DNA of 64,000 nucleotides from Nitrosopumilus sp. (lineage in GTDB: Archaea; Thermoproteota; Nitrososphaeria; Nitrososphaerales; Nitrosopumilaceae). A program made the translations under genes and the position numbers. The notes under the pieces are model-generated. The model did not search any database. It saw only the letters and a list, made by a program, of their open reading frames with translations, and was not told the DNA's origin. The stretch lies in assembly GCA_965197525.1 (NCBI GenBank), contig OZ240211.1:896001-960000 (forward strand), written 5' to 3'. Below, piece after piece: positions 26,475 to 59,995 of this stretch. Positions within the stretch are counted from its first letter, which is position 1. Every line of letters begins with the position of its first letter.

Positions 26475-26603
26475 ATACTATTGTATGAAAAGAACTGCAA
26501 TGATGAAAAAAGAATCAAAGGGTATGGGACACCCAATGATGAGATTGTTACGATCTGAGTACTCTTTTCTGTCCCACTTTATAATTTTTGAGGTGTCGTA
26601 CCT

Positions 26604-27728
26604 ATGAACGCAAGACAGGCAAGAGGTCAAACCATTGTAGAAAAACAGGGTCAGATCAGAAGAATAAACGACACACAATACGAGATCAAAAGCCAAAACA
26701 GTGATTCTCTATACGATGTGGTTGGCACTGAGTTTGGATGGTCGTGTTCATGTCCCGATCATCAGTTCCGTAAGGTTTGCTGTAAACATATCCATGCAGT
26801 CGAAATATCAATCAAGATACATCAAAAGGTGTATGATGATGTGGTAATTTCAGAAGTTACCATTGACACGTGCAAATACTGCAAATCGGCAAACATAACC
26901 AAGATGGGAGTACGTCACAACAAAAATTATGACGTTCAGATGTTTAGTTGCAAAGACTGTAACAGAAAGTTTTCAATCAATTTGGGATTTGAGAAGATGA
27001 GGGCTACACCAGACCAAATCACAATGGCTATGAACCTGTACTTTAACGGTGAATCCACAAGAAAGACTGCACAGTCGTTGTTACTCACTGGAATCAAGGT
27101 ATCAAACGTCACCATACACAACTGGATAAAGAAATACGTTGATCTTATGGATAGGTATTTGGAAAAGATTACACCTCAAGTGGGTGAATCATGGAGGACT
27201 GATGAGATGTATTTGAAGATCAAGGGTGACAAAAAATACATGTTTGCCATGTTAGATTCTGAGACTAGATTTTGGTTGGCACAGATGGTCTCAGAACACA
27301 AGGGGAATGATGATGTATCGCCAATGTTCAAACAGGCTAAATGCACTGCCAACAAAGTGCCATCAACCCTAATATCTGACGGAGCTGCAAACTTTCATCA
27401 TGCTTGGAAAGAACAATACAAGGCAAAGAATTTCTTACACAAGGACACAGAACACGTAAGGCACATACATCTTGCAGGCGATATGAACAACAACCAAATG
27501 GAATCCTTTAACGGTAATACCATGAGGTTGCGTGAGAGTGCTACAAGAGGAATCAAAAAAGATGATTCTGTCATATTCAAGGGTATGCAAATCCATCACA
27601 ACTTTGTCAGACCTCATCAAAGTTTAGATGGTGATACTCCAGCAGACAGGGCCGGTATCAGGGTTAAAGGTGACAACAAATGGAAAACCATAATTCAGAA
27701 CGCTTCAATGGTACCTACCAACCCTTAA
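26604..27728 (+). CDS. IS6-family DDE transposase with N-terminal SWIM and Zn-ribbon domains
   Basis: CSCPDH...CKHI SWIM; CKYC...CKDC; WRTDEMYLKIKG, LISDGA, NNQMESFNG catalytic segments; stop lies inside the right TIR. Confidence 0.9.
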   Translation: MNARQARGQTIVEKQGQIRRINDTQYEIKSQNSDSLYDVVGTEFGWSCSCPDHQFRKVCCKHIHAVEISIKIHQKVYDDVVISEVTIDTCKYCKSANITKMGVRHNKNYDVQMFSCKDCNRKFSINLGFEKMRATPDQITMAMNLYFNGESTRKTAQSLLLTGIKVSNVTIHNWIKKYVDLMDRYLEKITPQVGESWRTDEMYLKIKGDKKYMFAMLDSETRFWLAQMVSEHKGNDDVSPMFKQAKCTANKVPSTLISDGAANFHHAWKEQYKAKNFLHKDTEHVRHIHLAGDMNNNQMESFNGNTMRLRESATRGIKKDDSVIFKGMQIHHNFVRPHQSLDGDTPADRAGIRVKGDNKWKTIIQNASMVPTNP

Positions 27729-47782: not shown

Positions 47783-47944
47783 TAAAAAATTGCGTTTGTG
47801 GGAATTTAAAGAGTAGGAAATTGTCTAAAAATATCTAAAAATCATGTAAATGTGGCAATTATTGCCATTTACGGTTCTGTGAAGTTATCGGGGGTTATCT
47901 GTCAATCCCTAAAATGTATAAACCTCTAAACCGTAAGATATTCG

Positions 47945-49138
47945 TTGAGAGCGATAAAGTCAATATCACAGAAATATACGCCAAACTCTGATCTAATGGA
48001 TATGATGGCTATATTCACAAAGATGGTCAATCATTGCATCAAGACAGGATTGAAAGAAGACACTCACAATATGAAGAGGTTGTCCATGTTATGTTATCAT
48101 GAATTACGTAATTATGACATCCTGTCTTCATACAAACTAAATGCAATATCACGAGCTGCAGGCATATTATCAAACAGAAAACAATCAATCAAACGAGGTG
48201 TCAGAATAAGAGACCCAATAGTCAAAAATCCCTTTATGACAAACTGTTACGGTATACAACACAGCGGTGCACTATTAACAATCCCATACAAGAAACATAA
48301 CCCAATCAACATTTTACTCAACGTTCACACCCAAAAAATCCTATCTGATCCCGCCTTGACGGTGCGCTCGTTTTCATTGACTGCTCTGAACATCAGTCTT
48401 TGTGTTTCAAAAACAGTACAAGAGATAGAGTGCACCAATCAAGTGGGAATAGACAGAAACCTAAGAAATGTGACGTGTGGGAACAAGCAAGAGGTGACAG
48501 TCTACAAGACAAACAAACTGTTATCCATAAAGGAGAACACAATACACGCTAGGGCAGGATTCCACAGAAATGATCGCAGAAAGAAAGGTCAATTCTGGAA
48601 ACAAAGACAGAGACGAATGAGCAATAGAACAAAGCAGTACATCCACAGAATCTCAAAGGATATGGTATACAACGCAGTCAAAAACAAGACTGCAATCGTC
48701 ATGGAAAACCTGAAAGGAATAAGAAAATTGTACCGAAAAGGAAACAGTCAAGGTAACAAGTACAGGCGTAGATTGAACGGGTGGCAATTCTACGAGTTAC
48801 AACGCCAAATAGAATACAAAGCCCAATGGGTAGGGCTGCCTCCAGTCAAGACAGTAGACCCAGGAAACACGAGCACGCAGTGTCCACGATGCGGAAAGAG
48901 ACTCCAAGAGGACATGCAACAACATCGTAAAATGTCGTGTAATAATTGCGGTTTGTTTATGGACAGGGATATTATTGCTGCCATGAACATATCACGCAAG
49001 CTGCCCCCTAGGTTTAGGGGTAGTAGAGATGACATAGATGAAGCGCAGTCCGGCACTTTTGAGCAGGCGATGACGGAACCCGGCACACCATTGGTAATCC
49101 GAATAGTCGATATGTCAAAGTCAAGTTATAGGGGTTAA
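47945..49138 (+). CDS. tnpB: TnpB RNA-guided endonuclease
   Basis: RuvC-I GIDRN, RuvC-II MENL, Zn finger CPRC/CNNC, RuvC-III DRDIIAAMNI; stop lies within the right TIR. Confidence 0.95.
   Translation: MRAIKSISQKYTPNSDLMDMMAIFTKMVNHCIKTGLKEDTHNMKRLSMLCYHELRNYDILSSYKLNAISRAAGILSNRKQSIKRGVRIRDPIVKNPFMTNCYGIQHSGALLTIPYKKHNPINILLNVHTQKILSDPALTVRSFSLTALNISLCVSKTVQEIECTNQVGIDRNLRNVTCGNKQEVTVYKTNKLLSIKENTIHARAGFHRNDRRKKGQFWKQRQRRMSNRTKQYIHRISKDMVYNAVKNKTAIVMENLKGIRKLYRKGNSQGNKYRRRLNGWQFYELQRQIEYKAQWVGLPPVKTVDPGNTSTQCPRCGKRLQEDMQQHRKMSCNNCGLFMDRDIIAAMNISRKLPPRFRGSRDDIDEAQSGTFEQAMTEPGTPLVIRIVDMSKSSYRG
49001..49122 (+). ncRNA. putative omegaRNA scaffold overlapping the tnpB 3' end
   Basis: Nucleotide conservation with 57272-57390 after RuvC-III, including a CCCTA-GGTT-TAGGG hairpin, ends abruptly after GTCGATATGTCAAAGTC; boundaries approximate. 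Confidence 0.6.
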
Positions 49139-49164
49139 CTCCCGATAACTTCACAGAACCCCAT

Positions 49165-56247: not shown

Positions 56248-57186
56248 CTAGATGACACCACGCAGTATCTGAACAATCTTTTCAGCTATAACGTTTGCTG
56301 CCAGAGATTGGGCTTCTTTTGTTTGGGCACCGATATGAGGTGTTAAAATAACACTGTCTAGTTGGGCTAGTTTATTCCCAATTGCAGGTTCTTTCTCAAA
56401 GACATCAAGAGCTGCACCGCCCAAAGTGCCATTGCTGAGGGCATCATACAAAGCATCTTCATCAACAACACCGCCTCTAGAGGTATTGATGATCTTGGCA
56501 GTGTCCTTCATCATAGACATCTTTTCTGCATTAAGAAGATGGTATGTAGAGTCAAGCAAGGGAACGTGAATTGAGATATAGTCTGAGCTTTGTAATAAAG
56601 TGTCAAGGTCAGCCTTCATTAGACCAACCTCTTTTGAAAATTCGGCATCAATAGGAATCACATCATAGCCAATAATGTTCATATTAAATCCACGGGCAAG
56701 TCTTGCCAATCTCTTTCCGATGTTTCCCAGACCTATAATTCCAAGATACTTTCCGCGCAGTTCAGTTCCCTTTAGTTCTTTTTTGAGCCATTGTTGATTC
56801 CTTATTGCTCTATCGCCCCTTGCAGTCTGTCTTGCAAGTGATAACATTAAACCTAAAACCAGTTCTGCGACAGCATTCATCGCTCCTTCTACAGCGTTAA
56901 TTACACGAATATCTTTTGCGTTAGCTGCTTTTTGATCTATGTTGTCGAGTCCAACCCCAACACGAGCAATAATCTTACAATTATCAGCTTTTTCAATCAT
57001 CTCTTGGGTAATGGTAGTTCTACTACGAACAATTATAATATTAAACTCAGAGATCGTATCGAGAATTTGTGTAGCAGTAATTTCAGGTTGATAAGACACG
57101 CGTAGTCCATTATCTGATAAAATTTTTTCAAGTATTGGATCAACCTGATCACATATCAGAACAGAATCATCAAATCCCATAATCAA
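56248..57186 (-). CDS. serA: D-3-phosphoglycerate dehydrogenase family protein
   Basis: ARVGVGLDNID, GLGNIG, INTSRG, LDVFEKEP and TPHIGA motifs. Confidence 0.88.
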   Translation of the reverse strand: MIMGFDDSVLICDQVDPILEKILSDNGLRVSYQPEITATQILDTISEFNIIIVRSRTTITQEMIEKADNCKIIARVGVGLDNIDQKAANAKDIRVINAVEGAMNAVAELVLGLMLSLARQTARGDRAIRNQQWLKKELKGTELRGKYLGIIGLGNIGKRLARLARGFNMNIIGYDVIPIDAEFSKEVGLMKADLDTLLQSSDYISIHVPLLDSTYHLLNAEKMSMMKDTAKIINTSRGGVVDEDALYDALSNGTLGGAALDVFEKEPAIGNKLAQLDSVILTPHIGAQTKEAQSLAANVIAEKIVQILRGVI

Positions 57187-57243
57187 ATGATGTGTAATAC
57201 AGCATATATTTCATAGGTTCTGTTGCATTAACGAGTGGTGTTA

Positions 57244-58443
57244 TTAACAATAACAATCACTCAGAACACTGGACTTTGACATATCGACTATCTGGATTAC
57301 CGGTATACAGGGTTCCATCATAGCTGACTCAAAAACGTCAGACTGCGCTTCACTTATGCCATCTCTACTATCCCTAAACCTAGGGGACAGTTTGCGTGAT
57401 ATGTTCATGGCAGCTATAATGTCTCTGTCCATGAATAATCCGCAATTATTACACGACATTTTACGATGTTGTTGCATGTCCTCTTGGAGTTTCTTTCCGC
57501 ATCTTGGACATTGCGTGCTCGTGCGTTTTGGGTATACAAATTTGACTGGGAGCCCGACCCATTGGGCTTTGTATTCTATTTGGCGTTGTAACTCGTAGAA
57601 TTGCCAGCCATTCAATCTACGTCTATACTTGTTTCCTTGACCATTTCCTTTCTTGTACAATTTTCTTATTCCTTTCAAGTTTTCTAACACAATTACAGCC
57701 TTTTTACTAACGGCATTATCCACAATATCTTTTGATATTTTGTGTATGTATTGTTTTGTTCTATTGGCCATTCTTTGCTGTTTTATCTTCCAGAATTGAC
57801 CTTTTTTTCTATTGTCATTTCTGTGAAAACCAGCTCTTGCATGTATTGTGTTCTCTTTGATAGATAACAGTTTGTTAGTTTTATAGAACATTACTTTTTC
57901 ATCATTCCCACATGTGACATTTCTAAGGTTTCTGTCTATACCTATTACATTAGAGCACTCTATCTCTTCTATTTGTTTTGAGACACAAATACTAATGGTA
58001 CCATCATTTAATGAAAATGAACGTATAGTTAATTCAGGGTCAGATAGAATATTTTGAGTGTGATCATTTAACAGTATATTGATAGGTTGTCTGTTCTTGA
58101 ATGGTATTGTTAGTAGTGCACCATTGTGTTTTATACCGTAACAATTAGTGATAAATGGCTTTTTTATTTTTGGATATTTAACTTTGACGCCACGTTTTAT
58201 TGATTGCCTTCTGTTTGATAGCATGCCGGCAGCCCTTGATATTGCACAGATTTTATATGTTGATAAAATATCGTATTGATTTAACTCATGATAACACAGA
58301 TAGGACAACCGTTTCATATTGCACACATCTTCTTTTAGTCCTATTCTAATGGAAAGGTTTACCATTTCTATGAATGTATCCATCAACTCTTTTAGTTCAG
58401 AGTTTGGCGTATGCTTTTGTGTTATTGATTTTATGGCTTGCAC
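57244..58443 (-). CDS. tnpB: TnpB RNA-guided endonuclease (paralog)
   Basis: GIDRN, LENL, CPRC/CNNC and DRDIIAAMNI all intact. Confidence 0.95.
   Translation of the reverse strand: MQAIKSITQKHTPNSELKELMDTFIEMVNLSIRIGLKEDVCNMKRLSYLCYHELNQYDILSTYKICAISRAAGMLSNRRQSIKRGVKVKYPKIKKPFITNCYGIKHNGALLTIPFKNRQPINILLNDHTQNILSDPELTIRSFSLNDGTISICVSKQIEEIECSNVIGIDRNLRNVTCGNDEKVMFYKTNKLLSIKENTIHARAGFHRNDNRKKGQFWKIKQQRMANRTKQYIHKISKDIVDNAVSKKAVIVLENLKGIRKLYKKGNGQGNKYRRRLNGWQFYELQRQIEYKAQWVGLPVKFVYPKRTSTQCPRCGKKLQEDMQQHRKMSCNNCGLFMDRDIIAAMNISRKLSPRFRDSRDGISEAQSDVFESAMMEPCIPVIQIVDMSKSSVLSDCYC
57272..57390 (-). ncRNA. putative omegaRNA scaffold of the second tnpB
   Basis: Conserved with 49001-49122; boundaries approximate. 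Confidence 0.6.
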
Positions 58444-58573
58444 GTTATAAATTACAAGGTTTGTTTTTAATAAAAGTGCTTTTTTTATTTATTTGGTTCT
58501 ATTTTACCACTAGTGAATGCAACAGAGCCATTTCATACAAAATAATAAAAAAGAAAAAAAGATGTTTATACAA

Positions 58574-59995
58574 TCAAGAAGTCAGGATTTCAGCAACTAC
58601 TGGAATTACTTCCCATAGTGCAAGATAGTCTGGATGTTCTTCTTGTATTTCGGAAACTCTATCATCACTGTATAGGCCATGAATGTTTATTTTAGGATGA
58701 GCAATACTGTCTGCCCCCATTGGTGGGACAGCATCGCTTGGATTACCTAAAACATGTGCATATGATGCTACAGGCTCTTCGATGATTCCTGCTTCAACTA
58801 GAACTGGGTTCAAGCCAAATGGATCACCGGCTACAAATACTGAAGCTGCACCTGTATATAGTGCTGCATAGTCATGGTTTACTAGTGCATATGCACCTGG
58901 TTCATCAAATACCAAATCTACTATCATGTTCTGTGATCCTCCTAGTAGCCATGTTTCAGTGGCTGCAGATTGTACTCTGTTGCCTTGTGTAACTCTATCC
59001 AATATCTCTCCAACAATATGGAAGTATACTGGTTCGTTACCATGGTTTTCAGTAAAGATTCTCACGTGTTGATTAGTTTCAACAAACAAGAGTTGTGATT
59101 GGTACTGCTTGAGATCAAGTCCGTTCCATGGTTGTGCAACAAAGATGTTTCTATTGACATCCCCATTGACAAGTAAGTTGTGAGCCATGTTTGGTACATA
59201 ACCAAATGACATACCATTAACAACTGTTGCAGTGTTCTTATGTGCGAACATTGCTGTGGCATCATATGTGCCTTCAGGTGTTAGGTACAATTGGTTGTAT
59301 TGCATCTGGAACTCCAATGCATCTGCATCGTAGAACTTTCTATCTAGTTCACCGCTTCCGCTTGTCTTCTCAACCATTAATTTCTTGTATCCGTTTGCAG
59401 GATCAACAATTGCAATTCCGTACATGCCGGAAAATACGTGTTGGTCCATGCCAACTAGTTTGACACCAGAACAGTGATATTTGAAAACACCTGCGGCTTC
59501 AGCAATGTAACAATACTGACTTGTTTCACCAGGATTAACTGATTCAAAAGCGCTAGATGAGATTTGTGATGAGTGCATGTCGTTACCGTGTCCGGTAACT
59601 TCATCTGCTGGAATTTCTAGTGTCATTTTTACAACGTCGCCCTGAGTAACTCTCAGTGTAGGTCCTGGAACTTGTTCGTTAAAGACCATTGCGCTGAAAG
59701 TCTTGCCTCCCATGATTGGAAGTTCAATACTTTCGCCAACTAGGTTGAATTCAACTACGTTGCGTCCACTATTCTCCAATACACCACAATCAGTTTCTGC
59801 GAATGCCTGAGGCATTACAAGCTTTAAACCTCCCATTTGATGGATTTGTTCTAGTACATCGATATCCATTTCTTCGATATCAATGGACTGTCCAACAATC
59901 TGGGTTTGTGTATATGTGCTTCCGAATAAGGTAGCTCCCATTACAGCTACTGCCATAATTGTAAAGAGCATACTAACACGCTTATTCATGAACAA
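58574..59995 (-). CDS. nirK: copper-containing nitrite reductase (archaeal NirK)
   Basis: GHGNDMH, YHCSG...MDQHVFSGMYG, FHIVGE and VNH Cu ligands. Confidence 0.92.
   Translation of the reverse strand: MFMNKRVSMLFTIMAVAVMGATLFGSTYTQTQIVGQSIDIEEMDIDVLEQIHQMGGLKLVMPQAFAETDCGVLENSGRNVVEFNLVGESIELPIMGGKTFSAMVFNEQVPGPTLRVTQGDVVKMTLEIPADEVTGHGNDMHSSQISSSAFESVNPGETSQYCYIAEAAGVFKYHCSGVKLVGMDQHVFSGMYGIAIVDPANGYKKLMVEKTSGSGELDRKFYDADALEFQMQYNQLYLTPEGTYDATAMFAHKNTATVVNGMSFGYVPNMAHNLLVNGDVNRNIFVAQPWNGLDLKQYQSQLLFVETNQHVRIFTENHGNEPVYFHIVGEILDRVTQGNRVQSAATETWLLGGSQNMIVDLVFDEPGAYALVNHDYAALYTGAASVFVAGDPFGLNPVLVEAGIIEEPVASYAHVLGNPSDAVPPMGADSIAHPKINIHGLYSDDRVSEIQEEHPDYLALWEVIPVVAEILTS

Follow-up and report, generated by a model that had tools for sequence, protein, structure and literature searches.

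A tnpB element of Nitrosopumilus with IS6-like inverted-repeat ends, an 8-bp target duplication and a putative target-adjacent motif

A 64,000-nucleotide stretch of the genome of Nitrosopumilus sp. (GenBank assembly GCA_965197525.1, contig OZ240211.1, positions 896,001 to 960,000 of the forward strand; hereafter the window) contains a 1,314-bp mobile element at 57216-58529, whose sole gene is an intact tnpB on the minus strand. The element is bounded by terminal inverted repeats (TIRs) and by an exact 8-bp target-site duplication (TSD), and it is probably a non-autonomous member of an archaeal IS6-like group that carries an OMEGA module, TnpB plus omega RNA, as its only cargo and that homes by means of a guide and a target-adjacent motif (TAM). 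The single locus is an ordinary member of a large family, and the interesting part is the pattern seen across that family. Positions up to 64,000 are those of the window and larger ones those of the host genome, a single contig of 2.21 Mb with 39.6% G+C.

With the ends named in the orientation of tnpB, the right-end (RE) TIR lies at 57216-57239 (GGTTCTGTTGCATTAACGAGTGGT) and the left-end (LE) TIR at 58506-58529 (GGCTCTGTTGCATTCACTAGTGGT on the minus strand). Both are 24 nt long and were recognised as an inverted repeat; the arms start GGTTCTGTTGCATT and agree at 21 of 24 positions (88% complementary). Each end reads GGTTCTGTT..., with the GG tip and internal cTGTt motif of the IS6/IS26 type. 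The preliminary description of this DNA had equated the first 12 nt of the TIR with the end of IS257 and IS1216, and this agrees with the published inverted repeat of IS257 (GGTTCTGTTGCAAAGTT; PMC4856351) and with the start of an enterococcal IS6-family inverted repeat (ggttctgttgcaaag; PMC2920175). Immediately outside the TIRs, the octamer ATTTCATA stands at 57208-57215 on the RE side, at the 3' end of tnpB, and is matched exactly at 58530-58537 on the LE side. It is given as read directly (its minus-strand form is TATGAAAT), and apart from these two copies it occurs once more on that strand in the window. The tnpB gene (57244-58443, minus strand, 399 aa) is the only long open reading frame (ORF) inside the element. 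An A/T-rich subterminal leader with TATA-like runs (58444-58505, minus strand) extends from the left TIR to the start of tnpB and is, by its sequence, a possible promoter. Having 24-nt TIRs, an 8-bp TSD and no room for a tnpA, the element falls outside the definitions of the IS200/IS605 and IS607 groups, the usual homes of tnpB, whose members lack TIRs and TSDs, end in asymmetric hairpins and use a Y1 or serine TnpA.

The insertion separates a serA-like 2-hydroxyacid dehydrogenase gene from a multicopper oxidase gene. A serA-nirK location had been proposed, of which the serA side is matched by a serA-like gene; the downstream neighbour is assigned through a Cu-oxidase_3 match, evidence that reaches to the multicopper oxidase class but not to nirK itself. 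In seven congeners, genomes of the same genus, the two flanking genes are about 40 nt apart, the target is present once and the element is absent. A model made of the left flank, one ATTTCATA and the right flank aligns unbroken to the congeners' intergenic DNA (...ATATAATTCAT-TAAGAAAAT...). Their junction is single and exactly the whole unit is missing, as expected from the preliminary description.

TnpB matches occur at 60 places in the genome, 33 of them full-length with 76-96% identity. Pairing of GGTTCTGT-type ends gave 43 TnpB-related elements, comprising 33 full-length copies (1.28-1.45 kb, without a transposase) and ten miniature or truncated copies (208-655 bp) that consist of about 75-100 nt of the left end and the 3' part of tnpB. 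An exact 8-bp TSD flanks 26 of the 43 copies, and every TSD is different. The copy at 179539-180854 is 96% identical to the element and shares its ends; its own TSD is exact and differs (GATTATAT). A paralogous element within the window (47873-49160, plus strand, 1,288 bp) has the TIR GGTTCTGTGAAGTTATCGGG, the TSD CCATTTAC and TTG before its left TSD; it is 76.5% identical to the element in DNA over aligned columns and 77% in protein, close to the 'roughly 70 percent' first estimated by eye. The element at 57216-58529 has its own site, its own TIR and its own exact TSD, and is a bona fide TIR- and TSD-bounded tnpB element independent of this paralogue.

Since the structure recurs in other copies, coincidence is ruled out as the source of the TIRs and TSD at 57216-58529. 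The preliminary description had argued this from two independent cases; recurrence does exclude chance, but with about 43 copies in the genome the count was far too low. Solo tnpB genes mostly derive from IS200/IS605 (Altae-Tran et al. 2023, PNAS, PMC10691335), and the locus might on that ground be read as an ordinary IS1341-type (IS200/IS605) tnpB with coincidental TIRs and 8-bp repeat, or with two unrelated ends of miniature inverted-repeat transposable elements (MITEs) around it. We give this reading practically no credence. The same ends accompany tnpB in the 43 copies, 26 of which have their own exact TSD, exactly the whole unit is missing from the congeners' site, and the ends match those of DDE transposase elements. 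Both ends also travel with tnpB at the 179539 locus, with its own TSD, and are not the ends of two separate MITEs. The recurring copies with TSDs and the empty sites of the congeners together refute this candidate.

The TIRs of the family share GGTTCTGT and diverge beyond it by subfamily. Every TIR variant forms a clade when 32 TnpBs are placed in a maximum-likelihood tree, in which the element groups with the 179539 copy with 100/99 support. Because the TnpB clades coincide with the TIR variants, gene and ends diversified together and repeated capture is not needed to explain them. The comparison of TnpB and TIR phylogenies that had been suggested as a check thus favours one half of the earlier formula 'diversified family or repeated capture': diversification is upheld, and repeated capture of tnpB by different ends was rejected since the gene tree and the TIR classes agree. 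One congener, G004, encodes a 62%-identical TnpB between perfect 22-nt TIRs starting GGTTCTGTTGCATT. A TSD is lacking in 15 of the 43 copies. Reciprocal TSD halves, a signature of inversions between copies, were sought among these 15 and none was convincing; the lack of a TSD in this third of the family may stem from adjacent deletions or from other intramolecular, replicative events, as known for IS26.

The TnpB encoded by the element scores 75.5 bits on the Pfam model Cas12f1-like_TNB (cut-off 26.3) and 136.5 bits on the NCBIfam model guided_TnpB (cut-off 100), and its PDB matches are TnpB and Cas12f chains, which places it among TnpB/Cas12f-type proteins with a RuvC domain and a zinc ribbon. 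The RuvC D-E-D residues are kept as D170 (GIDRN), E254 (VLENL) and D341 (MDRDI, the DRD motif), the RuvC motifs align with their counterparts in solved TnpB-like chains, and a CPRCG/CNNCG zinc ribbon is present. The nuclease is active-looking.

The omega-RNA scaffold is predicted at 57216-57456 (minus strand), where it overlaps the 3' end of tnpB and runs to the element terminus. A structured RNA of this layout has several marks in the family. Between the two copies in the window, DNA identity is 86-90% in the 3' third of tnpB as against 68-78% elsewhere in the gene, and the block GGTAATCC..GTCAAAGTC (GGTAATCC..TAGTCGATATGTCAAAGTC) near the tnpB stop is near-invariant across all subfamilies. 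An RNAalifold consensus of 38 distinct copies contains seven base pairs with compensatory double changes (76-92, 78-90, 122-139, 123-138, 125-136, 126-135 and 146-176), examples being UA 22/CG 15, UA 14/CG 15, AU 11/GC 25 and CG 28/UA 10. In folds of ten subfamily representatives, the inner part of the right TIR is paired in the last hairpin with an upstream arm specific to the subfamily, and ACAGAACC stays unpaired at the terminus; in the element itself the inner part of the RE TIR forms the 3' arm of the predicted terminal hairpin. Such an arrangement is what one expects of a TnpB omega RNA with a guide that starts at the first base outside the element. The corresponding guide is predicted from this geometry at 57200-57215 (minus strand), made up of the TSD and the next 8 nt of flank, 16 nt being an assumed length. 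A search of Rfam (E up to 1) over window positions 57000-58700 matched no family.

Contigs from RNA libraries were taken from Logan, and derive from two sponge metatranscriptome runs and from unlabelled runs. High depth over the 3' part of tnpB was equalled in DNA-like runs, reflecting copy number, and is uninformative on expression. A contig joint that would represent the empty allele was not seen in the Logan contigs of these runs. One 104-nt metatranscriptome contig comprises the last 88 nt of the element (57216-57303) and 16 nt of the flank of the copy at 1394563. Its end, 16 nt past the RE, falls at the length expected of a TnpB guide and is a weak hint from contig data only. Miniature copies (e.g. 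870887-871264, 803351-803738 and 143852-144348) have both TIRs, the left leader and, of tnpB, only the 3' part that codes for the omega RNA; they resemble riders reduced to the RNA, to which TnpB would be supplied in trans.

A source of transposase is encoded elsewhere in the genome. Eight matches to DDE_Tnp_IS240 were found (42-61 bits, Pfam cut-off 27), and at least three of the transposase genes are intact. Two transposases examined closely are 387-403 aa long and have an N-terminal zinc-ribbon-like Cys cluster followed by an IS6-like catalytic domain. A SWIM finger is detected by Pfam in the 387-aa protein only, while the 403-aa protein has a SWIM-like CxC...CKH motif recognised by eye; a further zinc-binding domain is matched by both at a score slightly under its cut-off. 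For both, the best NCBIfam model is the IS6 family, matched end to end. The intact 403-aa transposase, whose gene is at 746888-748096, is carried by a 1,970-bp element at 746475-748444 with the TSD CTATTGTG and 29-nt TIRs starting GGTTCTGTGTAATCTTCG, the first 18 nt of which are identical to the TIR of one TnpB subfamily. Among 151 sampled genomes of the order, 58 contain the transposase. A GGTTCTGT-type TIR pair surrounds it at 16 of 30 loci, 15 of these in other genomes, and an exact 8-bp TSD is present at 15 of the 16 (14 in other genomes); counted over the copies of this genome alone, two transposase-bearing elements have an exact 8-bp TSD. These elements are 2-3.3 kb long, and none of the 30 transposase loci combines transposase and tnpB in one TIR-bounded unit. 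Since the transposase elements share GGTTCTGT ends and 8-bp TSDs with the tnpB elements but carry no tnpB, mobilisation in trans by the SWIM-zinc-finger IS6-like DDE transposase is the best-supported route and a likely one, judged from sequence.

Two transposase-bearing loci besides the one at 746475 are of note. The element at 699962-703151 is a 3.19-kb IS6-like unit with perfect 50-nt TIRs, a SWIM-DDE transposase whose intact gene lies at 699972-701132, and no TSD, which also carries DNA methyltransferase-like and HNH-motif ORFs (recognised by eye only); by hand count its TIR matches the RE of our element at 20 of 24 positions, the closest among the TIRs of transposase elements. Within the window, a SWIM/IS6-like DDE transposase gene at 26580-27722 (plus strand) is 37% identical to the intact copy and contains a single in-frame TGA. 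A search of the 2.5 kb around it gave no matching GGTTCTGT ends, and it is probably a decayed autonomous element.

When the flanks of every copy were compared in the orientation of tnpB, a W-T-R motif (A or T, then T, then A or G) was found directly 5' of the left TSD in 38 of the 43 copies (TTA 17, TTG 13, ATA 5, ATG 3), against a genome background of 8.8% (binomial p 4e-35). The middle T, at position -10, is present in all 19 full-length copies with an exact TSD. In our element the motif is the TTG at 58538-58540 (minus strand), directly 5' of the LE-side TSD, and is a putative TAM; the congeners' empty site has TTA in its place. The five exceptions are all copies without a TSD, and their flanks have changed since insertion. 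Practically every surviving insertion thus lies directly 3' of W-T-R and in one orientation, and for this reason TnpB would either fix only the W-T-R insertions or aid in the choice of site. Whether the TSD is used as the TAM-proximal seed of the guide, with TnpB driving the fixation of W-T-R insertions or helping to choose the site, is a proposal on which we are evenly balanced; it would be an undescribed coupling of TnpB to an IS6-like element.

The geometry and its statistics are observed; cleavage, the ends of the RNA and what the element gains are inferred. The element would be mobilised in trans by DDE transposases whose genes lie elsewhere in the genome. The omega RNA would be made from the 3' end of tnpB, its scaffold stopping with the final base of the right TIR while the transcript continues into the flank, so that the guide would consist of the 8-bp TSD and the downstream flank, here TATGAAAT-ATATGCTG on the minus strand. 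W-T-R, mostly TTA or TTG, directly 5' of the left TSD would act as the TAM. TnpB could cut an empty site because TAM, single target copy and flank are contiguous there, and recombination of the cut site with a filled copy would re-install the element, giving homing or retention. A filled site would escape cutting, as ..ACC stands where the TAM would be at the right junction, and at the left junction only 8 nt agree with the guide. In this proposal the homing scheme known for OMEGA elements (PMC13565253) is carried over to a transposon whose duplicated target is random. At the left junction (58530-58545, minus strand) a TAM-like TTG and an 8-nt match to the predicted guide precede the point where the sequence diverges into the TIR. 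TnpB could bind at this place, immediately upstream of its own promoter region, and leave the DNA uncut, a contact that may be autoregulatory.

Several observations weigh against homing as proposed here. The IS6 scores of the two transposases (102.6 and 121.4 bits) sit just under the NCBI cut-off of 125, and no transposase element was found with exactly the TIR of this element's subfamily. The RNA-library data consist of contigs only, and their depth follows copy number. Distant TnpB homologues from other families of the order (30-46% identity) have GGTTCTG-type ends at nine of 22 loci; W-T-R is present in only three of eight such distant elements with the same type of ends in other genomes, and in one of the two copies in congener G004, both of which lack a TSD. 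W-T-R was dropped as a general motif beyond the family of this genome on these two counts. The transposase elements that serve as a control for the motif are few and come from other transposase clades, which leaves room for a clade-specific, asymmetric target preference. IS6 and IS26 are thought to move replicatively via cointegrates (PMC7986276), and replicative movement leaves no emptied donor site for a 'restorative' homing; any benefit must therefore come from drive against empty alleles. The near-total linkage to W-T-R is also stronger than post-insertion selection alone would easily give. Because replicative transposition and this linkage are both troublesome for homing, two rival explanations of the motif were kept.

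The first leaves the architecture as described and takes W-T-R as a target preference of the transposase or transpososome, asymmetric as the two ends differ and unrelated to TnpB. DDE transposases often have target preferences, the motif lies at a fixed distance from the staggered cut, and its 100% linkage in copies with intact TSDs is most simply seen as a mechanistic need at insertion. Such preferences are, however, normally symmetric about the TSD, whereas W-T-R is found at the mirror position on the right in 6 of the 43 copies. Transposase-bearing elements with the same ends and TSD length have it in 5 of 28 flanks (Fisher p 2e-9), and in none of four in this genome. The motif is also always upstream of tnpB, exactly the place that a guide read from the right end demands for its TAM. 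We regard a transposase preference as unlikely on this evidence.

The second rival supposes that TnpB, with or without omega RNA, positions the DDE transposase at a TAM, so that the 8-bp stagger falls right after it, in a minimal TAM-only analogue of CRISPR-associated transposition. It would explain the near-total linkage and the fixed orientation, as well as the absence of the motif from transposase elements without tnpB, and it fits the omega-RNA-only miniatures, seven of ten of which have W-T-R, the three exceptions being without a TSD. A 3-nt motif nevertheless gives very little specificity, no adaptor is co-encoded, the two proteins are encoded in separate elements, and we know of no precedent for TnpB recruiting a DDE transposase. 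Homing selection accounts for the same pattern, and we hold site choice by TnpB to be somewhat more doubtful still than a preference of the transposase. Homing of the OMEGA module from within an IS6-like element remains our preferred reading.

Two further elements of the genome were noted. At 1394563-1396016 a 1,454-bp element has the same TGCATT-type TIRs and the TSD TATTTTTC. Of tnpB it keeps only the last ~48 codons, joined in frame to an N-terminal segment in a 135-aa ORF, with unrelated DNA after it; the N-terminal segment resembles an IS1595-type transposase zinc ribbon (by eye only), and the element arose through a cargo swap or through a nested insertion. An 835-bp element without genes at 572469-573303 has 40-nt TIRs, GGTTCTGTTGCGTTCATGAGGGGTAATTCTTCCTGTTGCG, with an internal repeat of CTGTTGCG; it has neither a TSD nor a TnpB remnant.

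TnpB is understood as a retention device of IS200/IS605 and IS607 elements, which excise scarlessly next to a TAM. The family described here offers a natural data set on what TnpB does in DDE transposons, with about 43 independent insertions, controls without tnpB and RNA-only miniatures, and the order of TAM, TSD as guide seed and flank is directly testable. If the proposal is true, it would provide a 399-aa nuclease with a short TTR-type TAM and would link IS6-like transposition to RNA-guided DNA cutting. For annotation, these tnpB copies should not be labelled as IS200/IS605 elements. The role of TnpB in DDE transposons has been raised as a question in a 2026 review (PMC13565253), which lists ISL2, IS630 and IS1031 as partners and does not name IS6.

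The element can be set against four known systems. It shares with the OMEGA elements of the IS200/IS605 and IS607 groups (ISDra2, IS608; IS1341 group) a TnpB with intact RuvC and zinc ribbon, an omega RNA that spans the 3' end of tnpB up to the right end, a T-rich motif in the left flank and miniatures that keep the RNA. Those elements have neither TIRs nor a TSD, and their insertion point is directly 3' of the TAM, whereas here the TAM-like motif is separated from the left end by a variable 8-bp TSD, which would join the guide. Fanzor proteins, too, are RNA-guided nucleases that travel as cargo of TIR- and TSD-bearing DDE transposons, with an omega RNA running into the TIR. In Fanzor elements the TAM includes the 5' TSD (e.g. 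TA or TTAA), and the RNA scaffold contains the 3' TSD (PMC13565253); in the present family, by contrast, the TSDs show no preferred sequence and the conserved motif is external to them.

The likeness to IS6/IS26 elements (IS26, IS257, IS1216) extends to the GG tips, the internal CTGT motif, the first 12 nt, which are identical to those of IS257 and IS1216, and the 8-bp TSD, as well as to the DDE_Tnp_IS240 catalytic domain of the putative trans-acting transposase, for which IS6 is the best NCBIfam model. Classical members are 700-890 bp long with one transposase of ~230 aa (Varani et al. 2021, PMC7986276), a size range that neither the TnpB elements (1.28-1.45 kb) nor the transposase elements (2-3.3 kb) meet, and the transposases here are 380-400 aa long with extra N-terminal zinc fingers and scores just below the IS6 cut-off. 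The same review records one passenger-carrying member of the family and none with TnpB.

The closest published parallel is that of the DDE-associated TnpBs, and the novelty implied in the preliminary description was overstated in this respect. Altae-Tran et al. 2023 (PMC10691335) describe six DDE-associated TnpB branches (DDE-1 to DDE-6) with inverted terminal repeats, a tnpB 3' end within 250 bp of the transposon end, and solo TnpBs whose ends are near-identical to those of transposase-bearing elements, implying mobilisation in trans. TnpB inside inverted-repeat ends, its 3' end near the terminus and trans-mobilised solo copies are thus shared with our element. The partner family named in the main text of that paper is IS630 only, and an overlap of the present partner with DDE-1 to DDE-5 is possible. 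Transposase and tnpB never share a unit in the elements sampled here, and against the TnpB clusters of that paper, of which it reports none with more than 30 copies, there are 33 full-length and ten miniature copies in 2.2 Mb here. What is new in this family is the IS6-like partner, the geometry that makes the TSD a putative guide seed, and the very high copy number.

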